Source: an uncultured delta proteobacterium
GTDB lineage: Bacteria; Desulfobacterota; Binatia; UBA9968
DNA length: 64,000 bases
Assembly: GCA_963737905.1 (NCBI GenBank)
Contig: CAVTUQ010000025.1
Coordinates: 288,001-352,000, forward strand
Direction of reading: 5' to 3'
Made by a program: the position numbers and the translations under genes
In this document: piece by piece, positions 2,278 to 64,000 of the stretch
Position numbering within the stretch: the first letter of the stretch is position 1
How the letters are laid out: each line of letters opens with the position of its first letter
The notes under the pieces: generated by a model
Told to the model about the DNA's origin: nothing
Databases searched by the model: none
What the model saw: only the letters and a program-made list of their open reading frames with translations

Positions 2278-3599
2278 GAGGCGTTTTCCTTGGTGGGAAT
2301 CAGCACGCCAACGGTCCGGCGATCACGGTCCAGGTACTGTTGAGCGACGCGCTGAACATCCTCGCGAGTCACCTTGCGGATGCCGTCCAGGTAATGATCC
2401 ATTAGCCGCCAATCGCCCGCGGCTTCATAGTAACCAATCTTCATCGCCTGTCCAAAAATCGAATCCTGACCAAAGACAAAAGCGGTTTCTATCTGGTTCT
2501 TCGCTTTCTGCAGTTCGCGGTCACTGATCAATTCCGCCTTCACTTGCTCCAATAGGCGATCGATCTCGCGCTCGATTTCCGCCGGCTCTTTTCCCGGCAT
2601 CAATTGCGCGGTTACGGAAAAGACGGATGGATCGATCGATACGCCGTCGTAGTCTGCGTCCACGCTTCTCGCCAAACGTTTCTGATAAACCAAATCGTGG
2701 TACAGCCTCGAACTCCGCCCCCCCGCGAGAACCACGCTCAGCAGATCCAGCGCGTAGCTGTCCGGACTTTTTAGATTGGGCGTGTGATAATACATCAATA
2801 CATAAGGAAGCTCCGCTTCCTTCTTCAATAGGACTCTGCGTTCGCCTTGCTGGGGCAGTTCTTCGGCTCGGACCTTCGGAGGCTCGGATCCGCGAGGTAT
2901 ATTTCCGAAGACGGCCTTGATCTTTGGCAGCATCTCTTCGGTGGAAAAATCTCCCGCCATCACAATGAAGGCGTTGTTGGGCTCATAGTAGAGCTTGTAA
3001 TGATCCACCAGGTCTTGACGGGTCAGATTTTGAATATCTTCCATCCAACCGATCACCGGCCGGCGGTAGGGATGGACCATGTACGCCACTGCACCGGCGA
3101 CTTCCCCCAACGCTGAGACCGGATTATCCTCCGTTCTCAGCCGACGCTCCTCCTGGATCACTTTTTTCTCAGGTTCAAAATAGGTTTCGCCCAGCAATGC
3201 ATTGGCCATCCGGTCGGCTTCCAATTCGATCTCAATCCCGATCTTGTCTCGGCTCATGGTCGCGAAATAAACCGTAACGTCAGAGCTGGTAAAGGCGTTG
3301 GACCGCCCGCCGTTTTTCGCGATGATCCGCGAATATTCTTCAGGCTTTGTCTTTTTTGTGCCTTTGAACATCATGTGCTCGAGAAAATGGGATAAGCCGC
3401 TTTTGCCGTCCTTTTCGTTGCGCGAACCCACGCGATACCAGACTTGGAAGGTTACAACCGGGCTCTTGTGATCCTCCAGCAGCAGTACTTTAAGACCGTT
3501 GTCCAGAACAAATTCCTGAACTTTCGTCGCGCCAGCAGGCCCGGGGAGCGCGAAAAACGCGCTAACAATAAAAATGAGAGAAAAACCAAACTGAGACAT
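2274..3599 (-). CDS. M16 peptidase, Zn-binding subunit
   Basis: HFLEHMMFKGT (HxxEH), NAFTS, EERR; likely start at MSQFGF followed by a signal peptide. Confidence 0.92.
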   Translation of the reverse strand: MSQFGFSLIFIVSAFFALPGPAGATKVQEFVLDNGLKVLLLEDHKSPVVTFQVWYRVGSRNEKDGKSGLSHFLEHMMFKGTKKTKPEEYSRIIAKNGGRSNAFTSSDVTVYFATMSRDKIGIEIELEADRMANALLGETYFEPEKKVIQEERRLRTEDNPVSALGEVAGAVAYMVHPYRRPVIGWMEDIQNLTRQDLVDHYKLYYEPNNAFIVMAGDFSTEEMLPKIKAVFGNIPRGSEPPKVRAEELPQQGERRVLLKKEAELPYVLMYYHTPNLKSPDSYALDLLSVVLAGGRSSRLYHDLVYQKRLARSVDADYDGVSIDPSVFSVTAQLMPGKEPAEIEREIDRLLEQVKAELISDRELQKAKNQIETAFVFGQDSIFGQAMKIGYYEAAGDWRLMDHYLDGIRKVTREDVQRVAQQYLDRDRRTVGVLIPTKENAS

Positions 3600-21373: not shown

Positions 21374-22006
21374 ATGCCACAGCCTTCACGAAGGCTCCAA
21401 CTACCGCCGCTTTACGCCATTCTCGATCCCGAGCAAACCAAGGGCCGCGCCACCGAGACCGTCCTCCGCGAGCTTTTGGAAGGCGGGATTAAGCTGCTTC
21501 AATTGCGCGCCAAGGTACTAACCGCCGGCGACTTCCTCCAGCTCGCACGGGTCGCGCGCAGATTGACGCGGTCCTCCGGATGTAAAGTGATCGTCAACGA
21601 CCGCGTGGACATCGCGCTTGCCTGTGACGCCGACGGTGTCCACCTTGGACAAGAAGATTTACCCCTATACGCCGCGCGGAAGTTGATGGGCGACAGCACG
21701 ATCGGCATCTCGACCCATGCAGTGGAGCAAGCCAAAGAAGCTGAAGACGGCGGCGCTGACTACATCGGGTTCGGTCCGATGTTCGGATCCACGACGAAAG
21801 AAACAGGCTACAGCGCGCGCGGCCTGGAAATGCTTCGCCGAGTTCGTGCAGCAATCGCCCTCCCCATAGTCGCCATCGGCGGAATCACCGAAGCGAACGT
21901 TGTAGAAGTCTGGCAAGCCGGCGCCGATTCCGCAGCCATCATCAGCGATATCTTAGGCGCGGACGATATAGCGGATAAGGTCAAAAGAATTCTAGCTCTC
22001 CGTTAA
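21374..22006 (+). CDS. thiE: Thiamine phosphate synthase
   Basis: QLRAK, VNDRVD, GVHLGQED, GISTH, STTK, VAIGGI. Confidence 0.96.
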   Translation: MPQPSRRLQLPPLYAILDPEQTKGRATETVLRELLEGGIKLLQLRAKVLTAGDFLQLARVARRLTRSSGCKVIVNDRVDIALACDADGVHLGQEDLPLYAARKLMGDSTIGISTHAVEQAKEAEDGGADYIGFGPMFGSTTKETGYSARGLEMLRRVRAAIALPIVAIGGITEANVVEVWQAGADSAAIISDILGADDIADKVKRILALR

Positions 22007-22124
22007 GCCGTGTAAACACCTCTTCCTCGATTCGCATCCTATGGTTCTCCGTCCAAAAGACGAAAATCTCGCTCCACTGTTGCACTTGCTGGGGTGATGG
22101 CGCTCAGGGTAAACTCTCATCAGC

Positions 22125-23736: not shown

Positions 23737-23886
23737 ATCGTCGCCATCGGCGGCATTACCGAAGCGAACGTTGCCGAAGTCTGGCAAGCCGGCGCTGATT
23801 CCGCAGCCATAATCCGCGACCTCTTGGGCGCGGGCGATGTTGCGGATAAGGTCGGAAGGATTCTAGCTCTCCATCAAGCCCTGTGA
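23737..23886 (+). pseudogene. thiE: Diverged duplicate of the thiE 3' end
   Basis: IVAIGGITEANVAEVWQAGADSAAIIRDLLGAGDVADKVGRILALHQAL*; about 21 mismatches over about 150 nt versus 21866-22015 (hand count). Confidence 0.9.
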
Positions 23887-23917
23887 ATATGGTTTCACAC
23901 CCTGCGCTGTCTCTATG

Positions 23918-24057
23918 ATTTACAATCGCCATACTCGGAGAGTAACATTTGGCTCCGCGGTTTAGTCCAACCCGTTTTATTCCCCGTCGCTCCTTCGACG
24001 ATCTCTCCCAGGCTTGATTGCTTCCAGGCTTTGGGGATAAAACGCTATACGTTATAG
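23918..24057 (+). mobile_element. Orphan right end of a tyrosine-recombinase/IS91-type element, abutting a cassette core site
   Basis: 24012-24054 matches 57018-57060 at 42/43 nt. TTTACAATC..CATA and GGCTCCGCG.TTTAGTCCAAC.CGTTTTAT.CCCC are also shared. Ends CTATAC|GTTATAG. Confidence 0.85.
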
Positions 24058-53979: not shown

Positions 53980-54140
53980 CCGTTCCTACACCCAACTGAT
54001 CAAAGCTACCTTTCAACCTCATTTTCTACCTTGTCACTCCTGGTATCGCATGGACCGCTGCCGCCACAAGGCACTCCTACTCAAGTTTGTGCGCGAGCGA
54101 CGCCCCGGCGCCGGATCGAGCGCTATTCACCGCGCGGTTG

Positions 54141-54289
54141 ACTTTTGCGACTCATCTCCTCGAAGACGGCTACGACATCCGAACCGTCCAGGAATTATTA
54201 GGGCATAAAGACGTTTCGACTACGATTTTTACACTCATGTGTTAAATCGTGGCGGCAAGGGTGTTTTCAGTCCCGCTGATCGGCTTTAA
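54141..54289 (+). pseudogene. intI: Integron integrase C-terminal remnant
   Basis: [28 protein letters not shown] / [19 protein letters not shown] (1-nt frameshift); characteristic IntI C-terminus; N-terminal part absent. Confidence 0.88.
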
Positions 54290-54400
54290 TAACACCCTTG
54301 TTGCATGTGAGGGCGGTTCTTTCTTTGAGAAAGGTCATGAAAAAAAAGTCTATGGGAGAGGATTTGGTAACCGCTGCCGTGCTACACCGCGGGCTGATAT

Positions 54401-54553
54401 CTGGATACCCCGCCCCCGGCGCAGCGTTTGTCGGGAAAAGAGATTGACAAGGCAGCGCTTGTTGGCGGATATTGCAGCTGTTTTTGCTCTTACTCGATTG
54501 CGGATTCCTGGATACCCCGTCGGAAGAGCCGGCAGTTCACTTAATAGTTGAAC
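54401..54553 (+). promoter_or_regulatory. Putative Pc promoter and attI
   Basis: 12-bp direct repeat CTGGATACCCCG (54401, 54508), TTGACA(54444)-18 nt-GATATT, core GTTGAAC at 54547-54553. Confidence 0.55.
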
Positions 54554-54689
54554 TAAACCGCTTCGCGGTGGCACTGGTTATGTAAGGTCGGTGCCACTCA
54601 CTCTACCTTTGTTTTTCATTGATCTTGCTAGCTGATTGTTTTTCTCTGAACTAGCGTAGTTCCCAAAATTAATCCAAGGAGGATTTTTT

Positions 54690-55538
54690 ATGGGAGCACT
54701 ACGAGAAAAGATGGTTGGGGAGATGAAACTGCGCAACTTCGCGTCCAGGACACAGAAGTCTTACCTTGCCGTGATGGTGGGGTTGGCCAAGCACTATCGT
54801 CAGTTTCCGGATCAACTGACGCAGGAGCAGATCCGCACCTACCTGTTGCATTTGCAGGAGCGGGGGCTGTCGAGCAGTTCGCAGAACGTGGCCATCTCGG
54901 GGCTACGGTTTTTCTATCAGCAGGTTTTGGGGTGGACCCAGGAGCAGATATTCTTGCCACCGAGAAAACGCACCTGGCGATTGCCGGAGGTGTTAAGTCC
55001 CAGGGAAGTGGAGCGATTGCTAGCTGCCGCAGTCAAGCTTCGCGATCGCTGTTTGCTAATGACGGCCTACTCGGCAGGGCTTCGGGTCAGCGAGCTGGTC
55101 CACCTCAAACTGAGCGATATCCATACCGAGCGGATGATGATCCGCGTAGAACAGGGCAAAGGGAAAAAAGACCGTTACACCATTCTCTCCCAACGGCTGC
55201 TCGGTGAGCTGAAGAGATACAAGCAGACTTATCAACCGGTTTCGTGGGTCTTCTTTGGCAAGAACAGAAATTGCCCTTTGGATATCACTGCAGTCCAGAA
55301 AGTCTACAATCGAGCCAAGCAGAAAAGTGGCGTTGAAAAAGGCAAGGGCATTCATACATTGCGCCATTGTTTCGCAACCCATCTTCTTGAGGGCGGAGTG
55401 GACCTGTGCACGATCAAGACGCTGTTGGGGCATAACTCGCTTCAGAGTACCCAGCGCTACCTGCAGATTCGCCAGCCCAAGTTGAGCTCGACCACGAGTC
55501 CGTTAGACTTGCTCGATCTGCGTGACCCCCCGCTTTAG
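54690..55538 (+). CDS. Tyrosine recombinase with N-terminal SAM-like domain
   Basis: GLRVSE, GKGKK, HTLRH, LGH, Y: full R-K-H-R-H-Y set; no IntI-type insertion. Confidence 0.95.
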   Translation: MGALREKMVGEMKLRNFASRTQKSYLAVMVGLAKHYRQFPDQLTQEQIRTYLLHLQERGLSSSSQNVAISGLRFFYQQVLGWTQEQIFLPPRKRTWRLPEVLSPREVERLLAAAVKLRDRCLLMTAYSAGLRVSELVHLKLSDIHTERMMIRVEQGKGKKDRYTILSQRLLGELKRYKQTYQPVSWVFFGKNRNCPLDITAVQKVYNRAKQKSGVEKGKGIHTLRHCFATHLLEGGVDLCTIKTLLGHNSLQSTQRYLQIRQPKLSSTTSPLDLLDLRDPPL

Positions 55539-55550
55539 TCGGGCACGATC

Positions 55551-56726
55551 ATGCTGCTTGCCCGTCCAGGGCTGGTGGCAGGAGAGAGAAGCGGGGGCCC
55601 CGAACTGGCCGATATCTTTCGTAGTCACGGGCAGAGCTACCAACGAACGCATCGCCTATCGGCCTCTGAGCAAAAAGTGATGCGGGCCGTTGAGGTCTGT
55701 CGCACGGCTGAATTGGGAGGGCATCTCAAGCAGTGCGACACTTGCGGCTTTGAGCACCCGACTTATAACTCCTGCCGTAACCGCCACTGTCCTAAATGCC
55801 AGTCGCTGGCCAAAGCCAAGTGGTTGGAGAAGCAGACCTCTGAGCTTTTGCCGGTGGGCTATTTTCATCTGGTCTTTACCTTGCCGCACCTTCTCAACGG
55901 CTTGATCCTGGCCAACAAAAAGATCCTGCTAAGCCTGCTGTTTAAAGCCGTCAGTGAAACGTTACTAGAGTTTGGCCAGACACGTCTTAAGGGAACCCTC
56001 GGAATCATCGCCGTGCTACACACCTGGGACCAAACGCTCAAGGATCATTTTCATCTGCACTGTTTGGTTCCCGCCGGCGCTCTGTCTTCGAATCACAGCC
56101 GTTGGATTGGAGCACGGCCAAACTTTCTGTTTCCTGTCACCGCTCTGAGCCAGGTGTTTCAGGGAAAGTTCCTGGCTCTCTTACAACAGGCCTGTGATAA
56201 AGGAAAAATCCCGCCGGCCAACAACGAGATCAAAGCATCACGGCAAAAGAGCTGGGTGGTCTACGCCAAAAAGCCGTTCGGTTCTCCACAGACCGTGCTC
56301 GATTACCTCGGCCGCTATACCCACCGCGTGGCGCTGTCCAACGAGCGCATCCTTTCGGTCCAAAACGGTCAGGTCACCCTGAGTTATAGAGATCGAAAGG
56401 ATGGCAACAGAAAAATGACCATCCCCCTTGACGCCCAGGAGTTCATCCGCCGCTTCCTGCTTCACGTCTTGCCCGATGGCTTCATGCGCATCCGTCACTT
56501 CGGGTTTTTAGCCAACCGCTCTAAAAAACAGGCCTTGGCTCAGTGTCGCAGACTGCTAAAAATTGAGGCCGCGTTGCCGGAAACCCCGAAGGAGTCAGCT
56601 AAAGATTTGTTGCTGAGAATCACCGGCATCGATCTGAGTCGCTGCCCTTCCTGCCATCGGGGAACCATGATCGTCGTCGCTGAGCTGCCGCCGATTTCAA
56701 GCCCGTCTCAATGGGATTCTTCATGA
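55551..56726 (+). CDS. IS91 family (Y2 HUH) transposase with Zn-binding domain
   Basis: C..CG...YNSCRNRHCPKC, HLVFTLP, HTW...HFHLH, YLGRY, EFIRRFLLHVLP.GF.RIRHFG. Confidence 0.96.
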   Translation: MLLARPGLVAGERSGGPELADIFRSHGQSYQRTHRLSASEQKVMRAVEVCRTAELGGHLKQCDTCGFEHPTYNSCRNRHCPKCQSLAKAKWLEKQTSELLPVGYFHLVFTLPHLLNGLILANKKILLSLLFKAVSETLLEFGQTRLKGTLGIIAVLHTWDQTLKDHFHLHCLVPAGALSSNHSRWIGARPNFLFPVTALSQVFQGKFLALLQQACDKGKIPPANNEIKASRQKSWVVYAKKPFGSPQTVLDYLGRYTHRVALSNERILSVQNGQVTLSYRDRKDGNRKMTIPLDAQEFIRRFLLHVLPDGFMRIRHFGFLANRSKKQALAQCRRLLKIEAALPETPKESAKDLLLRITGIDLSRCPSCHRGTMIVVAELPPISSPSQWDSS

Positions 56727-57087
56727 GAAAAACTCAAATGCTGATAAGCCCTTTTTACTGTTTACAGGCCGTCGTCGCACAGGTGTGTCTGCTGATACCC
56801 AAAAGTTGCTCCCATGCCCCATTGCACCGTAGCCATCAAACAAAATCTACCGACCTCGATCTCAACCTTCTCCTGCTTCTCGATCTATCGCTCACACAGC
56901 ACCACCCTCGGCACCGCTGTGCCACTTTACAATCCGCATAGCCGCAACCTCCGTGCGGCTCCGCGCTTTAGTCCAACACGTTTTATCCCCCCGTGGCGCT
57001 TGCCAGAATATTTTGGAGCTTGATTGCCTCCAGGCTTTGGGGATAAAACGCTATACGTTAGGCAAGCCAAGGCAAGCCCAGTATGCG

Positions 57088-57663
57088 ATGACGACCTATC
57101 AACCCTACTCGGACTTTACTGCGCAGAGCCGGACGGTTTCGGCGCTCATGTCGATGTACGCGCAGCTTAAGCGTGGTACGTCGTCGACGACCGAACTCAC
57201 ACCCATTGTTGTATTTCTTGCGTTCTCAATCGAGTCGTACCTTAACTCAATTGGAGCACGAAAGCTCGCGATCTGGGACGAGTTGGAACGCCTTCCATGG
57301 AAAAACAAGATTGCAATACTCCACAAGACAGTCGGCAAATCGCCGGTGTGGGATAAAGATCCGTTGCAGTTCGCAATTGAGGTGTTTTCATTGAGAGATA
57401 AACTTGCTCATGGGAAACCCGAACGGGTGGTCGGTCTGAAATTTAGAACCCACGCAGAGGCGGCGCGGTATATCAATCGGCCAGAGTTGCACCCCGACTT
57501 GCAGCCACAGTGGTACAGGAAAATTACAAAGGACTGGGTGATGGATGCAAAGGAGCGTTTTAGACTCCTGATGATATACCTAAGTGGGATGTTCGATCTT
57601 CACGAGTCGGACCACTTGCTCACCTCCACTGGCGGCTTGCTTATCGACGATGAGAAAGATGCC
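57088..57663 (+). CDS. Cassette gene, HEPN-like protein (native stop lost at the intron junction)
   Basis: F..E.YLN and RDKLAH (Rx4H); cassette starts GTTAGGC; ORF reads through GCC into intron sequence to 57798. Confidence 0.6.
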
Positions 57664-59665
57664 AGGAACGCCGGTTACCCGGCGCCCCCCGTACAGACCC
57701 CGGCGTGCAGTTTTTCCGCACCGGGTTCCTCGGTCCTACTCGCTTCCGCGCAAGACCTAGCCATCAAGCAAACACTCTCCGTCGCGGCATCTCGGTGATA
57801 CACGGCTTGGCGATAGAGACACATTTAAGCACCCGCTCAAACTGCTCCCATGTGTAGCTTCGCCGCCAACTCCGACGGTTGAGCCACTTGAAGGCGCAGT
57901 TTATCGCCCACGCATAGAAGCGGTACAGCGAGTGCGAGTTGCCTCGCACACCATAGTAATTGTAATGACCGCGTAACCGAGCGTTTAACCGCTCGAAAAA
58001 TTCGCCTCCAGGCAAGTGTCGGTTGAGCTTGATCCATTCCTTGATCCTACGGCATGCAGCCTGCAATCTCTTGCGGGCCGTACGCCGCTTTACCCTCGGC
58101 ACGCCTTGCCGATCGAGCTTCCACTGAAACTCGAAGCCCAGAAAGGCAAAACGATGCTTCAGTCTCGGATGAAATCGACTGAAACGCAGGATGCGTGTCT
58201 TCTCCGAAGCCACCTCTAAGTTGAACTTCGCCAACCGCTTCGGTAGCACCCGATAAAACCGCTCTGCGTCTTCCCGATAGCGGAATGCCCACACCGCATC
58301 ATCAGCATAGCGACACATGATCGCCTCTCCCCGGCTCCGTGGCTTAACGACTTTCTCAAACCACAAGTCCAATGCGTAATGTAAGTACACATTGGCGAGC
58401 ACCGGGGAAACAATCCCGCCTTGAGGAGTGCCGGTATCTGGATGAATGACCTCTCCATCTGTCTCCAAAATGCCAGCCTTCAGCCATTTCCGAATCAGGT
58501 CAAGAAAGGCCTGGTCGTCGATGCGCAGACTCAGCATCTTCAGCAGCCAGTCATGGTCCATATGATCGAAAAAGCCTTTGACATCAGCCTCAACCACATA
58601 CCCATAGACTCCGTATTGCAGGTCGAAGGTGAGGTCTCTCACCCCATCCAACGCACTGCGCTCGGGCCGATAGCTATAACTGCAACTTAGGAACTCCTGC
58701 TCGTAAATCGCACTCAAAAGCTTCGCACAGGCCAACTGAACCAGCTTGTCTTCCAACGCCGCTATCCCTAACGGCCTCTCTTTACCATCCTCCTTCGCAA
58801 TGTATCTTCGCCTCACCAACTTCGCCCGATAGCGCTTCGCTCTCAGTCGCTCTACCAGCGCCTCGATGTTAGCCTTGAGATTTCTCTCATAAGCCGCCAC
58901 CGTGACCCCGTCCACACCCGCCGCGCATTCTGTTCAACTGCGGCCAGCACCACATCACGTACTCAACGTTCAAGTACCGGTAAAGATCCTGAAATCGGTG
59001 GCACTTGTTGGCTTTCGCCTTGTTTGCTATTTCCCGCAGGAAGGTTGGCTCGTGTTCTCCCGGCCCAACTCTGTCCGGCACGAGTTGCCTATGCAGGTTT
59101 CGTAGTTCCGTCAGGTCCTTCCCCATGTACGTGGCTTTCCCACGCTCCGAGTACTATGCCTGATAAGACCCCCTAAGCTTGCGGCGGGCTTTCCCTCTTA
59201 CAGTACTTCTCCGCCTACCTCGCGGCGTTCCACTCGGGCGCTCTAGGTTCCAGCATAGCTCCGTCTCCGGGTTTCCCCTTGTGTGCCTCATTAGCTGTAT
59301 ACCCTACTCCCTAGTTTTGCTCCGCTTGGAACCCATGGGGCCTCCCGGGTTCTCCTAGCGTATCTCTCCCTGCATGCCATGGCCTGTGGACTCCGGCGGA
59401 CCTCCACATCCTCGCCCTATCGGATGCTTCGTGTTGGCTTCGTGCACGTTAAAACACTCGCCGTCCGCAACAACCCTATCTCGAAGCTGTACCAGCTCTT
59501 CAGGACGCGCGGTCGTCCCTACGGCCTACAGGATTCTCTGTCTACGCTTCGCCTGTCTCGTTCGCCTTTCGGCTCCTCCACAGACGCAAGACTCGATACG
59601 GGCGGGTGGCTCACCCTTACCCGACGGGGACTCTCACCCCGTAAGATACGCCGAGCTTTGGCGGA
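57664..59665 (-). mobile_element. Group II intron (IIC-attC type) inserted antisense in an attC site
   Basis: Domain V GAACCCGGTGCGGAAAAACTGCACGCCGGGGTC and domain VI near 57665-57730; 5' region CGGCGTATCTTACGGGGTGAGAGTCCCCG next to TAAC of the attC at 59663. Boundaries approximate. Confidence 0.85.
57764..59126 (-). CDS. ltrA: Group II intron reverse transcriptase/maturase (frameshift near 58927; no En domain)
   Basis: AGVDG, RPLGI, GTPQGG, RYADD, FLGF, LRGHYNYYG; N-terminal part in another frame; true start uncertain. Confidence 0.9.
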
Positions 59666-59743
59666 TAACGATCGGGTTGAGTCCGATCGTCCGCCTACTC
59701 GCTTGCGCTCGCGAGCTGCGTCCGCTCACCCTCAGCGTTAGGC
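59663..59743 (+). other. attC site (remainder after intron insertion)
   Basis: GGATAAC..GGGTTGAG ... CTCACCC..GTTAGGC. Confidence 0.75.
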
Positions 59744-59773
59744 CACCCATATGACTACTGGTACGAGTCACTC

Positions 59774-60595
59774 ATGAAAAACCTTAAGGCCTTTCAAAAA
59801 AGCCAGTTGATCTACGAATTCGGCATTCTCATACAACCACTCGAAGAACTCGCAAGAGCGAACCGGATACCGTTGCTAAACGAGTATCGGATCGCGATAG
59901 CAAAAGTTCAGGCGGGTGACGGTGCTTGGCGTCGGCAAGTCAAAGCGTTCACTACATTTGCAGCCGACATATTTTTTATCCAAGAGTATCAGGACATCTC
60001 GCATGTTCCCGAGCGATGCTGGGGCGCTTTGAAGGGAGTCATCAATGACCAAGCTTTCCAAAATGACCCAAACCAGCTTAAAGGACGGGTCGCGCAGGAA
60101 ATCGCAAATGCTCGCGAGAGGTTTTTCGAATACATCGACAGGATTCCGCTTGCATGGGAGCCTGTTGTGTTTGAAGCTAATACGCCATTCACGTCGTACT
60201 TGAGAATCAAGGAAGCAATCGTCGCGGTCAAGCAACGTCTGCACTACTTTGATAGGTATCTTAAGCCAGATTTCTTCGCGCTGTTCTTAGTCTCAGTGGA
60301 TAACACCGTTTCAATCCGGCTCGTTACCACTGCCGGTAATACACAATACGGCGTTACCAGTGTTGCTGCTGTGTCAAACCTTGCTCGGCAGCAGTTTGCC
60401 GACTATCAACTGATTGAGGTTGCTCCAACTGATCTACATGATCGCAATTTGCGAGTTGATGATCTGATCTTCTCTCTCGGTCCGGGAGTTGATCGCGCGG
60501 GAATGGCATTGACGAATTTCGGACCGTCGGACAGCTCCTTAGAGGCTCACAACGAATTCGATCGAATAATAGCGGGCGGGCGTGTCGTGTCATAG
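59774..60595 (+). CDS. Cassette hypothetical protein with PLD-like C-terminal domain
   Basis: YFDRYL, IRLVT, LHDR...D...SLG pattern. Confidence 0.6.
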   Translation: MKNLKAFQKSQLIYEFGILIQPLEELARANRIPLLNEYRIAIAKVQAGDGAWRRQVKAFTTFAADIFFIQEYQDISHVPERCWGALKGVINDQAFQNDPNQLKGRVAQEIANARERFFEYIDRIPLAWEPVVFEANTPFTSYLRIKEAIVAVKQRLHYFDRYLKPDFFALFLVSVDNTVSIRLVTTAGNTQYGVTSVAAVSNLARQQFADYQLIEVAPTDLHDRNLRVDDLIFSLGPGVDRAGMALTNFGPSDSSLEAHNEFDRIIAGGRVVS

Positions 60596-60625
60596 TTGTG
60601 TCTATTGGGAACTCACAAGTTCAGG

Positions 60626-60724
60626 CCCTAACAAGCCACTGGAGCAGACGGCCCACCCGACAGATTGTGTGGGTCTACACTCATCTCGTCGTGAGTGGGC
60701 CGCTGCTCACCGGCGGCGTTATGC
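60626..60724 (+). other. attC site
   Basis: CCCTAAC..TGGAGCAG.CGGCCCAC ... GTGGGCCGCTGCTCA..GTTATGC. Confidence 0.85.
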
Positions 60725-60745
60725 GGTCTATGAATTGGATTAATA

Positions 60746-61014
60746 ATGCCAGAGGTTTCTAGGTTCTTCGGAATTATCATTCGCATGTTCGTTGAGGCCG
60801 GAGGACAGCACATATGCCTCACTTCCACGCGTACTATCAGGATCATGTGGGAATCTACGATATCGGCAGGGTCGAGCGTTTGGCCGGCTCCCTTCCGAGA
60901 CGTCAGGAACGCCTTGTGCTAGCGTGGGCAGAGCTTCATCAGGAAGAGTTACTGTCGAATTGGCAGACGTTGCAACAGGGCCGTCCGCCCATTAAGATTG
61001 ATCCATTAAAGTGA
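60746..61014 (+). CDS. DUF4160 family protein (1-nt frameshift near 60811)
   Basis: MPEVSRFFGIIIRMF / PHFHAYY...WAELHQEEL..NW...IDPLK. Confidence 0.8.
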
Positions 61015-61025
61015 GAGGTCCGCCT

Positions 61026-61343
61026 ATGGCTCATGAGATTTATCGGGTTTCCTCGTTTCAGAAGGTAGCGCCATTCACTCTGCGCGTACAGTTTGACGAC
61101 GGTACGTCCCAAATCATCGATTTCGGTCCTGTCCTGAAAGGGGAACTGTACGGTCCTCTGCAAGAGCTAACGCTTTTTGATCAGGTCCGGATCGATCCAG
61201 AGGTCCACACGCTTGTTTGGCCAAACGGTGCAGATTTTGACCCAGCAATTCTTCATAACTGGCCCGAGTCAGGACCGGCACTCAAAGCTCTAGCGGAGCA
61301 GTGGGTCTCCGCAAAGCACGGCATGACCGATTCCGCCACATAA
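61026..61343 (+). CDS. DUF2442 family protein
   Basis: LRVQFDDG, PL....F..V, TLVWPNGADFDP; stop in ACATAAC R'' box. Confidence 0.85.
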   Translation: MAHEIYRVSSFQKVAPFTLRVQFDDGTSQIIDFGPVLKGELYGPLQELTLFDQVRIDPEVHTLVWPNGADFDPAILHNWPESGPALKALAEQWVSAKHGMTDSAT

Positions 61344-61344
61344 C

Positions 61345-62099
61345 CAATAAGGATTGAGACGACTTCCGAGTCGTTTCAATCCTTAGTTCAAGAAGCCCGT
61401 GGTGAGGCAACGATCAATATAAAGGGAAATGGTTGTGAGTGTGGTTTGCGCCGAAGGAAGTGAAGGTCAGATTGGCGGTATGAATCGGCGCGCTGTGAAG
61501 TTGCAGCGGTAGAGTTTACTTAACTTTTGTTTTTTTCTCGCCAGTCTCTCCGCAAAAGAGAGTATCAGAACAAGGTTGGTGGCAAACCTCGGCGCATCCC
61601 CATGAGCTTTCATGTAGCGGAGGAGAAACAGAGGGAGATGAGTATGGTGTTGAAGAGTTTTTTTAACCTGATCGACGCAGAATTTTGAGAGGCGGCAGCA
61701 GCGAGCGCAATTTGAGTAGCCCACCGCAGGTTGGGCAGGTAGCGCCATGAGGAGGATCGACCTCGGGCAGAGGCAGATCGAGAGCGAAACCGTAGCTTAA
61801 TTCGATCAGGGCGCGAATCCGATCGAGTGCAATCTTGCAGTTGGGATTCATAAAGCCGTAGTAGCGGATCTTCATGAAACCAGTGGGCAGCACATGCTGC
61901 AAGAAACGGCGGATGAACTCCATGACATCAAGAGCCAAGATTCTGGAGCGCTGGCTGTGAGGCTTGCGATAGCGAACCAGCACGGTGCGGTCTTGGACGC
62001 CGAGGATGCGCGAGTTGGAGATCGCGACTTTGAAGACGTAGGGAGCGAGATACTTAAGACAAGCTTCACTGGAAGAGACCGCTTGGCAGTTGACGTTCC
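61345..62099 (-). mobile_element. Truncated second IS91-family element (right end plus transposase C-terminus), inverted
   Basis: WNVNCQ...YLAPY...EFIRRFLQHVLPTGFMKIRYYG...CPTC (61663-62099); 17-bp terminal hairpin at 61348-61385 abutting the R'' box. Confidence 0.88.
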
Positions 62100-62100
62100 A

Positions 62101-62181
62101 GGCGAATTGATTCGCCTCATTTCGGCCCGCAAGGCGGACCGGTCAGAGCGGGCCCAATACAGCAGACGGTGGAGACAATGA
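62101..62181 (+). pseudogene. BrnT toxin C-terminal remnant
   Basis: GELIRLISARKADRSERAQY...* with ATGA overlap to the antitoxin. Confidence 0.75.
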
Positions 62182-62396
62182 GAAAACATTACGACTTTTC
62201 CCAGGCCAAACCGAATCCCTACGCCAAACGGCTGAAGAAGGAAGTTACGCTTCGGCTTGATGAGCGGACGGTTAACTATTTCGAGGAACTGTCTGAAGAG
62301 ACGGGGATTCCCTCCCGAACGCTTATTAACCTGTATTTGCGTGAATGCGCCGCAAGTCGGAAGCGGCTGGCTCTTCAATGGAAACCTGCGGCTTAA
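62178..62396 (+). CDS. BrnA/CopG-type antitoxin
   Basis: MRKHYDFS...NPYAKRLKK.VTLRLD...YF...GIP..TLINLYL. Confidence 0.85.
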   Translation: MRKHYDFSQAKPNPYAKRLKKEVTLRLDERTVNYFEELSEETGIPSRTLINLYLRECAASRKRLALQWKPAA

Positions 62397-62404
62397 ATGT
62401 CGCG

Positions 62405-62505
62405 GCCTAACAAACCCACTGCACCCGACCACGACCTTGCTACAGTTCTGAATGAGGGCTCAAGGCCAGAGTCTGGCCGCGTCGGGTGAGCGGGTGCCGT
62501 TAGGC
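62405..62505 (+). other. attC site
   Basis: GCCTAAC..CACCCGAC ... GTCGGGTG..GTTAGGC. Confidence 0.85.
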
Positions 62506-62527
62506 GTGAATGCAGCAAGGGAGGGCA

Positions 62528-62896
62528 ATGATGAAAAAGCTTTTGCTTTTAGCGGTGACGATTTCGATATCGGGTTTCTTTGGCAAGGCTGCGACGGCGC
62601 AAGAAAAAGCGGAGAAGGCGAATGTACCTACCATAACGGTCTTTGTGCAAAATGACCGGGTCAAAGGTTACGAGGGTCACTTCAAACCTGGCGACAAGAG
62701 CGCTGGGATGGCGAAGCGTCCCGCCCGAGTCGAGTTTGCTATCACGGATGGTCAGATGAGGAATTACTATCCGGACGGTAAAACAGAAGAGGTCATGTGG
62801 AAAGCCGGTGAAGTAAAGTGGTCGGAGCCGGCGACTTACCAACAGGAGAATATTGGGACAACAGAATTTAGAATCCGGGTTGTCCAATTGAAGTAA
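62528..62896 (+). CDS. Cassette gene, secreted cupin-like protein
   Basis: Signal peptide; NDRV, PGD, G..KW, NIG..E..V.LK cupin pattern. Confidence 0.65.
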   Translation: MMKKLLLLAVTISISGFFGKAATAQEKAEKANVPTITVFVQNDRVKGYEGHFKPGDKSAGMAKRPARVEFAITDGQMRNYYPDGKTEEVMWKAGEVKWSEPATYQQENIGTTEFRIRVVQLK

Positions 62897-63010
62897 AGTG
62901 CAGCGCTTGAATTTTTGGATATTGCCTTCACTCCTACCATCGGAGCTACGTCGCGAGCTGCTTGGGCTTTAACATTAGGTGAGACACTACGCATATGGTA
63001 GACTACCTCG

Positions 63011-63253
63011 GTGCCAACCGTCTTGAGGAGCGGTCCGTACCGCGTGTACTTTTTCAGCCACGAACCGAACGAACCTCCTCACGTCCACGTGGATCGAGAT
63101 GATTTGTCCGCTAAGTTCTGGCTTCAGCCGTTGGCACTGGCACGGAACTTCGGGTTTCCGCCGCGAGAATTACGGCGGCTCAGCGCTCTGATCGAAGAGA
63201 ACCGAGAAAAACTATTGGAGGCGTGGCATGGGCATATTAGCGCTAAGCGCTGA
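63011..63253 (+). CDS. DUF4160 family protein
   Basis: PTVLR.GPYR.YFFS.E..EPPHVHV...AKFWL. Confidence 0.88.
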   Translation: MPTVLRSGPYRVYFFSHEPNEPPHVHVDRDDLSAKFWLQPLALARNFGFPPRELRRLSALIEENREKLLEAWHGHISAKR

Positions 63254-63539
63254 CGAGCGGGTGCGGGATGTGCGTGTGTCGGAAGACACATTGACTGTCG
63301 ATTTGATGGACGGTCGAACGATCTCCGTACCCTTGGTTTGGTATCCGCGACTGCTGGGTGGGACACCGAAACAGCGATCGAATTGGAAGGTATGCGCGGC
63401 CGGTTACGGTATCCACTGGCCGGATCTGGACGAGGATCTCAGTACAGAGGGTTTATTGCGGGGTGCGCCGGCGCCCGCAGCTTCGGCACGGCGCCTAACC
63501 AACCGCTCCAAGCGACGGCGGAAAGCTCGCCGCGCCTGA
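63228..63539 (+). CDS. DUF2442 family protein
   Basis: L.DGRTISVPL.WYPRL...GIHWPDLDEDLS; C-terminus reads through the attC. Confidence 0.88.
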   Translation: MGILALSADERVRDVRVSEDTLTVDLMDGRTISVPLVWYPRLLGGTPKQRSNWKVCAAGYGIHWPDLDEDLSTEGLLRGAPAPAASARRLTNRSKRRRKARRA

Positions 63540-63554
63540 CCGGAAACGTTTAGC
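63493..63554 (+). other. attC site
   Basis: GCCTAAC...GGCG..AGCTCGCC...GTTTAGC. Confidence 0.7.
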
Positions 63555-63601
63555 CAGCAGAATAAATTTGTGTTAGATTTCAGGGCGTGGAGAAAAGCGA
63601 G

Positions 63602-63826
63602 ATGTCAGTCCCTGAGCCCTTAATCACGACCTCGCCTGATCGGTTAAGCGGGACTCCCGTCTTTGCGGGCACCCGCGTTCCTGTGCAAACCCTTGTCGAT
63701 TACCTTGAAGAAGGCGATTCTCTGGACGATTTTTTGGCCGACTTTCCTAGCGTTTCTCGCGAGCACGCCATCGCGGTGTTGGAGCTCGCAAAATCGGCTC
63801 TCCTTGCCAAGGCTGTTGCCGCATAG
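63602..63826 (+). CDS. DUF433 family antitoxin
   Basis: SGTPVFAGTRVPV...FL.DFPSV. Confidence 0.9.
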   Translation: MSVPEPLITTSPDRLSGTPVFAGTRVPVQTLVDYLEEGDSLDDFLADFPSVSREHAIAVLELAKSALLAKAVAA

Positions 63827-63832
63827 CTGCAA

Positions 63833-64000
63833 GTGCGAGTGCTCCTCGATGGCTGCGTGCCGAGCCGCCTAGCCGATGAATTGCCAGACCACGAGGTTAA
63901 CACGGCGCCGGAAATGGGCTGGGCGAATCTCGACGACGGGCCCCTCCTTGATGCTATGGCCGAGCGGTTCGACGTACTTGTTACCGTGGACCAGAGTCTT
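63833..64000 (+). CDS. DUF5615 PIN-like toxin (partial)
   Basis: MRVLLDGCVP...EMGW....DG.LL....FDVLVTVDQ; follows DUF433. Confidence 0.82.
   Translation, partial: MRVLLDGCVPSRLADELPDHEVNTAPEMGWANLDDGPLLDAMAERFDVLVTVDQSL

Follow-up and report, generated by a model that had tools for sequence, protein, structure and literature searches.

Among the platforms by which bacteria capture genes, integrons are the main ones, and, to our knowledge, few mobile elements home to their recombination sites, the IS1111-attC group of insertion sequences (IS) and the group IIC introns being the known cases. The element considered here lies at positions 54547 to 57056 of the window, the whole 64,000-nucleotide (nt) stretch of DNA that was analysed, which comes from an uncultured delta proteobacterium of the class Binatia (contig CAVTUQ010000025.1, positions 288,001 to 352,000). 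It is an intact member of the IS91 family, from the ISAzo26-like subgroup in which an Xer-like tyrosine recombinase gene lies upstream of the Y2/HUH transposase gene. It probably stands, in cassette orientation, exactly at a crossover GTT, with the attI region of a decayed "inverted" chromosomal integron on one side and that integron's first cassette on the other, and would belong to a lineage specialised on attI and attC sites.

The closest described relatives are, of course, the IS91-family elements themselves. According to PMC13181058, these have an oriIS and a terIS with subterminal palindromes and a tetranucleotide target (CTTG or GTTC) beside oriIS, which is not duplicated; termination fails in 1-14% of events. 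The same paper reports that in IS801 and IS1294 the terIS cleavage motif is the same as the oriIS target motif, and that the bottom-strand single-stranded DNA (ssDNA) circle of IS91 inserts with TnpA alone (PMC13181058).

A few members of the family also bear a recombinase. ISAzo26, from a plasmid of Aromatoleum EbN1 (locus L159), is such an element by its RefSeq annotation. A tyrosine recombinase gene also precedes the transposase gene in the IS91-like elements ISShvi3, ISSod25 and ISWz1, all catalogued in ISfinder/TnPedia. For ISShvi3, a position adjoining an attC has been remarked upon, as "a new gene cassette structure", in PMC9229058. Within the full-text literature, with ISfinder/TnPedia and subscription journals outside the search, no description was found, for the recombinase-bearing IS91 group, of a specificity for integron sites or of an oriIS that is attC-like. 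For the element proposed in an initial annotation of the locus, a claim of complete novelty would be too strong, since recombinase-bearing IS91 elements (ISAzo26) are catalogued and the cassette-like ISShvi3 has been noted in PMC9229058.

The element and its genes

The element is made up of the following parts.

54547 to 57056, plus strand: the insertion sequence, GTTGAAC...CTATAC in IS91 notation, placed by the homology limits of the copies C1 and C22, and with ends that are conserved across 23 genome and 80 metagenome loci; its left GTT is possibly the target's own
54547 to 54600, plus strand: left end, terIS-like, with a 15-nt terminal repeat GTTGAACTAAACCGC and two small palindromes (54557-54569 and 54569-54597), read from the sequence
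54690 to 55538, plus strand: gene for an Xer-like tyrosine recombinase of 282 amino acids (aa), not an IntI, identified by Pfam and NCBIfam profiles
55551 to 56726, plus strand: gene for an IS91-family Y2/HUH transposase of 391 aa, intact, identified by Pfam and NCBIfam profiles
56963 to 57056, plus strand: right end, oriIS-like and attC-like, with a subterminal repeat (56963-56977) ending GTCCAAC, one base, the stem arms 56979-56990 and 57039-57050, and the spacer CTATAC (57051-57056)

Both genes are intact and co-oriented within 54547-57063. The 391-aa open reading frame (ORF) matches Pfam Y2_Tnp (E 7.9e-56) and Zn_Tnp_IS91, and thus joins a Y2/HUH transposase to the zinc-binding N-terminal domain of the IS91 type; it scores 439.6 bits against NCBIfam NF033538, "IS91 family transposase", where the cut-off is 125. 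HLH and YLGRY are visible in its translation, and we take these to be the catalytic motifs. The ends, too, are those of the family, being unlike one another, with subterminal palindromes, and with an oriIS 3' of tnpA beside a short conserved target. Membership in the IS1111-attC group (IS110) was rejected, the sole transposase being of the Y2/HUH and not of the DEDD type.

The 282-aa ORF matches Pfam Phage_integrase (E 9.8e-38) together with an N-terminal Phage_int_SAM_4, and in the NCBIfam search it fell below the cut-off of every Xer and IntI profile. Against TIGR02249, the integron integrase, it reaches 164 bits (cut-off 265). This profile covers the protein in two blocks only, 4-179 and 237-314, which means that the insert specific to IntI is absent. 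The intact IntI of the same genome is 29% identical to it, with 315 IntI residues aligned to 272. An assignment as IntI was therefore rejected, because the score is under the cut-off and the extra domain is missing. What the initial annotation had proposed, a discrete mobile element carrying its own intact tyrosine recombinase and IS91-type Y2/HUH transposase genes, is borne out.

An inverted integron with the element in its first slot

The sequences on either side of the element are those of an integron.

54099 to 54290, plus strand: frameshifted C-terminal remnant of an integron integrase gene, directed towards the element; best NCBIfam match TIGR02249, profile positions 262-296
54291 to 54549, plus strand: attI region of the "inverted" integron, closing with the crossover GTT 54547-54549, recognised from IS-free repeats at C34 (twice) and C7 and in the relatives G016, G013, G003 and G015
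57057 to 57063, plus strand: core site GTTAGGC, comprising the target triplet and the start of the first cassette, from the sequence and the IS-free sites
57064 to 59743, plus strand: first cassette (ORF 57088-57798, of no family), split near its 3' end by a minus-strand group II intron and ending in GTTAGGC at 59737-59743
59744 to 64000, plus strand: later cassettes, among them two DUF4160/DUF2442 pairs, a CopG-like antitoxin and a DUF433 protein

Here, then, is an "inverted" integron, in which intI and the cassettes point in the same direction, and the element takes the first-cassette position. This genome holds one intact intI. When its product was compared with the remnant by tblastn, identity was 83-85% over 33 and 18 aa at 54129-54286. 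Elsewhere the arrangement is preserved more fully. At locus L024 a homologous attI unit lies behind an intact intI of 360 aa that ends 214 nt before the element, and in the relative G013 the 3' end of intI is contiguous with the attI unit. The intI remnant, the IS-free repeats and the intact gene at L024 together support the view, put forward at the outset, that an attI lies on the left.

On the other side, the ORFs 3' of the element are all on the plus strand, small, and of the type found in chromosomal cassettes, and they are divided by hairpins of the type GCCTAAC...GTTAGGC. Convincing attC-like folds are found at 60621-60722 (z-score -4.0) and 62405-62506 (z-score -2.9); the hairpins at 63493-63556 are weak, and their fold is not significant. 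These attC sites were called by eye and by their folds because detectors based on core boxes and minimum free energy (MFE) failed. The cassette array and its attC-like folds support the claim that the right end lies at the core of the next cassette. The element itself is bounded by G|TTRRRY, co-oriented with the array and within it, as a cassette would be. The group II intron runs on the minus strand over 57764-59640, with a reverse transcriptase/maturase ORF at 57764-58915 and a match to Rfam RF02005 at 59380-59634; it is inserted just beyond a strong stem-loop (59660-59695), antisense to the cassettes. Rfam matched this intron alone, with no match for the attI unit or for the IS ends.

Boundaries

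The genome (6.7 Mb in 46 contigs) contains two other copies of the element (C1 and C22), about 75% identical to it and both frameshifted, whose homology to the window covers 54541-57059 and 54549-57063. The left flank, 54291-54549 (259 nt), is itself a repeat, and three of its copies in the genome are free of the IS (C34 twice, C7). All three finish ...TTAATAGTT at 54549 and then diverge, into GTTAGGC..., GTTAGCC... and GTTGGGC.... In family-level relatives (G016, G013, G003 and G015) the attI unit is likewise followed by GTTGGAC, GTTATCC, GTTAGGT and GTTAGAA. The homology limits of the decayed copies and the IS-free flanks ending at 54549 place the left boundary at the GTT of 54547-54549, where the initial annotation had put it; GTTATGT at 54577, which had been named as an alternative, is excluded by the same flank copies.

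The right tip is CTATAC (57051-57056), followed by GTTAGGC. Public sequencing runs offered a further comparison. About half of the sampled words are contained in 19 runs from 9 studies, and the assembled contigs (Logan) of four soil runs (X1, X2, X3 and X7) were inspected. Contigs from these other soils depart from the window only past 57063/57064. The IS-free sites contain one GTT, and the occupied site one GTT on each side of the element. This means that three readings give the same sequence, these being a crossover at G|TT, a left GTT that belongs to the element, and a 3-bp duplication.

Insertion sites across the lineage

A protein scan of species genomes gave 23 loci at 62-89% aa identity, in Syntrophobacteraceae, Binatia, Nitrospirae and other metagenome-assembled genomes, and a scan of metagenome contigs with a 22-nt left-end pattern gave at least 120 stretches, 80 of which were analysed. 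Genome loci and metagenome stretches, this genome's three copies included, form a survey set of 103 left ends. The left-end motif is present in all 103, with at most two mismatches. The triplet before GAACTAAACC is GTT in 76, GAA in 9, ATT in 7 and some other in 11. The nine of the GAA type, probably a subgroup whose end extends further left, were counted and left out of the analysis. Among flanks of the GTT type at least 40 nt long, 63 of 72 are non-redundant, which implies many separate insertions.

Twelve of the 103 left ends have an intI gene or remnant no more than 450 nt away. In eight of the 12, intI is on the same strand as the element and ends 154-264 nt before it; in the remaining four it is divergent, starting 82-409 nt away. 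Thus, both integron layouts are hit, with the element always in cassette orientation. Ten further flanks are similar either to those attI regions or to the one that adjoins the intact intI of the genome, and another 12 carry a simple stem 2-8 nt before the GTT (one of these being the right end of a tandem copy). With a score of at least 9 and an end 2-8 nt before the triplet, such stems occur in 15 of 67 left flanks and at 19 of 743 control GTTs from the same contigs (Fisher 7e-9), an enrichment of about 9-fold. Two single-base bulges on the 5' arm mark true attC sites, and the stems of L077, L062, L099, L118 and L045 have them. Demanding AAC/GTT pairing in the folds of the left flanks proved too strict, only 4-6 of 68 being found, because the IS has replaced the RRRY half.

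In one class of attI unit, ending ...CTCACTTAATAGTT (the last 60 nt or so at L101, L038, L021 and L024/L033), the stem arms vary between loci while their complementarity is kept. Such variation implies that this type of attI may itself fold.

With intI nearby in 12 of 103, ten attI-like flanks and the enrichment of stems, the expectation that relatives recur at both attI and attC sites is supported, and integron targeting by this lineage is, from these sequence comparisons, well supported.

Several results nevertheless weigh against it. By strict rules 69 of the 103 left flanks stay unclassified (nine of them with less than 100 nt of flank); by eye only, many of these show boxes of the TATAC or CTAAT type 6-7 nt before the GTT. 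Folding energy alone does not separate left flanks (20 of 67) from control GTTs (98 of 466; p 0.12), and no strong sequence motif was found left of the GTT in the left flanks. Two attC detectors combining core boxes with MFE folds were dropped, one giving 3 sites in the window and 1-4 in shuffles, the other 1 and 1-2. No contig bridging a circle junction or an empty site was seen among the assembled contigs of the four soil runs, uncovered parts not counting. As to the enzyme, targets of the attI type are at least as frequent as those of the attC type. The same preference is known from cassette insertion by IntI, and it would suit a tyrosine recombinase, which may even be IntI.

Architecture of the ends

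The initial annotation had claimed that the joined ends of the element would fold into an attC-like hairpin. Its components are in place. The 15-mer at 56963-56977 is complementary to 54547-54561 with two mismatches and to 23957-23971 with one, and a perfect 12-bp stem is present at 56979-56990/57039-57050. Matches of this 15-mer within the window are not beyond chance (3 found, 1.54 expected; 22 of 100 shuffles reach 3). The complementarity is considered real because it is conserved among related elements.

This conservation was followed in elements with both ends available, 34 of 40 being kept; L021, L023, L086, L090, L094 and L092 were left out, the wrong repeat or stem having been picked, and in four rows the right triplet was set by hand. 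In 33 of the 34, the subterminal repeat can pair with the first 15 nt of the left end at 13-14 positions. The order of the right end is constant, namely a 15-nt repeat ending GTCCAAC, a gap of 0-3 nt, a hairpin with 11-25 bp, a spacer 4-8 nt long and the triplet. The 5' spacer is 1 nt in 22 elements and the 3' spacer 6 nt in 24. The right triplet is GTT in 29, ATT in 3 and GCT in 2, and it equals the left triplet in 29, all three ATT elements among them; in two of these three the repeat ends AAT instead of AAC.

The stem shows covariation. In 29 aligned right ends (alignment A1, from which L049 was left out), 9 of 12 pairs are changed on both sides and 86% of cells are paired. The covariation score is 0.256, compared with 0.109 when shuffled (0 of 500 shuffles reach the observed score); sliding the partner yields no more than 0.066. 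The flank that follows the right-end GTT is RRRY in 15 of 28 (p 1.5e-11), and the R''-like box GTCCAAC pairs with this downstream flank in 80% of cells. In the window, 56971-57063 fits RYYYAAC-N-GTTRRRY.

Nature has provided one example of the joined form. At L109, two copies stand head to tail with one common GTT, and this natural junction folds into a single long hairpin (-40.9 kcal/mol, z-score -7.9), as predicted for the joined ends. The integrated right end of the window folds no better than shuffles (z-score -1.4).

How far is this an attC? An attC follows the rule of extrahelical bases and of an unpaired central spacer of similar length on each side. The element has the imperfect palindrome R''-L''...L'-R', but its stem foot is paired at 12 of 12 positions, and extrahelical bases and equal unpaired central spacers are lacking. 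The description as attC-like therefore holds for the geometry of box, hairpin, spacer and GTT, with spacers of 1 and 6 nt, and fails for the bulged bases of a true attC. Judged by sequence, the layout of the right end is equally that of a normal IS91 oriIS. The comparisons do show that the oriIS has attC's box-hairpin-spacer-GTT geometry and that attI and attC sites, at their crossover GTT, are where the lineage homes.

Right ends also occur by themselves, as in the following module.

23951 to 24056, plus strand: solo right-end module of a related element (repeat, hairpin and CTATAC, then GTT), 83% identical to 56957-57060

Other solo or decayed right ends in this genome lie at C39:5602-5649, C9:100110-100166 and C28:37585-38375, followed by GTTAGGC, GTTAGAC or GTTGGCG. 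Locus L024 has a second right-end-like sequence (3400-3462, ...GATAAAACGCTATAC and then GTT) upstream of its intact intI, and at L025 (2630-2669) the last 23 nt of the right end are duplicated in tandem, with GTT after each copy.

Mechanism and alternative explanations

The mechanism that seems most likely would begin with the transposase, which would nick between the spacer CTATAC and the GTT at the hairpin-bearing right end. Rolling-circle replication would then release a single-stranded circle, in which the left end could pair with the subterminal repeat and so form a long hairpin. The element's own enzymes, and not the host IntI, would insert this circle at a GTT that has a hairpin or binding box a few bases to its 5' side, as is found in attC and attI.

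Three arguments favour the element's own proteins over IntI. First, the bulge-free stem goes with a recombinase that has no IntI insert. Second, the recombinase gene was found by tblastn, co-oriented, in 21 of the 23 genome loci. Third, ISAzo26 and the Sinorhizobium copy have the same ends with no integron annotated. For the joining step, on present sequence evidence, the odds would be roughly equal between the transposase alone, for which the family provides a precedent, and the element's recombinase. The covariation of triplet and repeat recalls the guide-type recognition of IS200/IS605, and the high share of attI, by analogy, recalls the behaviour of a tyrosine recombinase. Each sequence feature of the element would be equally expected of an IS91-family member.

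A stricter division of labour between the two enzymes, the model of the initial annotation in its strict form, is less likely. Here, the HUH transposase would do nothing but make the ssDNA circle, and a single strand exchange by the Xer-like recombinase, resolved by replication, would join the folded ori-ter junction to attI or attC. Such a role would suit a recombinase gene that is conserved and co-oriented, whose translation shows residues that we take to be catalytic, and which lacks the IntI insert where the hairpin lacks bulges; it would also suit the frequency of attI among the targets, and the junction hairpin of L109, where two duplex boxes flank an unpaired spacer. Against this, TnpA alone suffices for all steps of IS91, the insertion of the ssDNA circle included (PMC13181058). 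Likewise, the agreement of the triplets in 29 of 34 elements, with a repeat end that tracks the triplet in two of three ATT elements, fits guide-type recognition by the HUH enzyme as well.

A bolder version is rather doubtful. It makes of the element an autonomous, two-enzyme "selfish cassette", where the HUH enzyme peels off an ssDNA circle and the element's own IntI-like recombinase (without the IntI insert, in keeping with the bulge-free hairpin) integrates the ori-ter junction with no need of the host integrase. Solo right ends left behind, among them the module at 23951-24056 in front of a second cassette-like array, could then act as attC-like sites, and so seed or extend arrays.

In another, unlikely, explanation the host does the work. 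The right end would be an attC mimic, IntI would move the element in an attI x attC reaction, and the transposase would provide single strands or be irrelevant to the choice of site. IntI does prefer attI x attC for cassette insertion, and relies for recognition on extrahelical bases. A GTT on both sides, the fit to RYYYAAC-N-GTTRRRY, the pairing of the R''-like box with the downstream flank, a first-cassette position by intI in 12 of 103 and the one intact intI of the genome would all be expected of such a passenger. However, the stem foot is fully paired, with no extrahelical bases and with spacers of 1 and 6 nt, the local intI is only a remnant, plasmid relatives with the same ends live outside annotated integrons, and both genes of the element are conserved.

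Least able to survive, and very improbable, is the explanation that the element is of an ordinary IS91 type, takes a short GTT(N) target, and has only an incidental link to integrons (core sites hold GTT, sampling is biased, or the flanks were carried by one-ended read-through): the 4-nt targets and termination failures known in the family (PMC13181058), the unclassified flanks, the negative energy-only test and the missing motif left of GTT speak for it, but intI, a rare single-copy gene, lies close to 12 of 103 left ends, the attI unit occurs IS-free with differing cassettes in this genome and in relatives, stems exceed control GTTs, RRRY is enriched at the right flank, and several classes of attI and both integron orientations are hit.

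Other features of the window

A thiamine-phosphate-synthase-like gene, so called on the basis of its translation, has its final 151 nt (21866-22016) repeated with 86% identity at 23737-23887. Between these repeats are small cassette-like ORFs; after the second come the solo right end at 23951-24056 and then another cassette-like run on the plus strand. This second array may have the solo module at its head. Within the array 3' of the element, another IS91-family transposase is represented by a fragment (Y2_Tnp, E 2.8e-13) on the minus strand at 61663-61983, in the opposite orientation.

Significance

A whole IS91-type lineage, common in soil and sediment metagenomes, thus occupies cassette slots at the exact crossover point, often in the first position beside attI, and so comes to lie between the array and the integrase side. 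It links HUH rolling-circle transposition to folded-hairpin recombination in a unit of 2.5 kb, and offers a testable role for the so-far unexplained recombinase of an IS91 subgroup. Relatives of IS91 are able to take adjacent DNA along with them, so that cassettes, or stretches of an array, could be moved by elements of this kind. Were the autonomous two-enzyme explanation true, it would bear on the origin of attC sites and cassettes, which is an open question.

Comparison with known systems

With IS91, IS801, IS1294 and their ISCR relatives, the element shares the Y2/HUH transposase with its zinc-binding N-terminus, two unlike ends with subterminal palindromes, a GTT-type target beside the end downstream of tnpA, perhaps without duplication, and solo right ends of the kind that one-ended events would leave. 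It differs from them in adding a recombinase gene and a 15-nt inverted repeat (left tip and subterminal right site), and in using as its sites integron attI and attC, rather than any CTTG or GTTC.

The copy of ISAzo26 and one on a Sinorhizobium meliloti plasmid (L160) are nearer still, having the same gene pair and the same architecture of ends. Their recombinases are, however, about 45% identical to the element's, and they adjoin palindromes of other kinds, carry ATT at their right end, and have no annotated integron around them. Long palindromes adjoin both of these copies; that of L160 lies directly 3' of three consecutive tyrosine-recombinase genes, with the same palindrome motif on both sides. 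This suggests that the ISAzo26-like branch has its homing sites at the ends of another recombinase-borne element.

Integron cassettes and their attC sites share with the element bounds of the GTTRRRY core type, co-orientation within the array, a 3' R''-like box, imperfect palindrome and R' box, and positions both first at attI and behind attC. The element differs from a cassette by its 2.5 kb with two mobility genes and by its unbulged stem foot, and from an attC by its asymmetric spacers of 1 and 6 nt and by a joined form that pairs 15 bp instead of 7.

The IS1111-attC group (IS110) and the group IIC-attC introns are likewise mobile and home to integron attC. Their enzymes are unrelated to those of the element (a DEDD transposase in one case, a reverse transcriptase with a ribozyme in the other), and they interrupt attC instead of occupying a cassette slot at the crossover. 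Finally, in CTX-type phages and in IS200/IS605 an HUH protein makes ssDNA, and a folded hairpin is the substrate of site-specific insertion, by Xer recombinases in CTX and, in IS608, with a guide sequence at the foot of the hairpin. These are mechanistic analogues only, to which the element does not belong; it has both types of enzyme within one 2.5-kb unit, and its targets are integrons.

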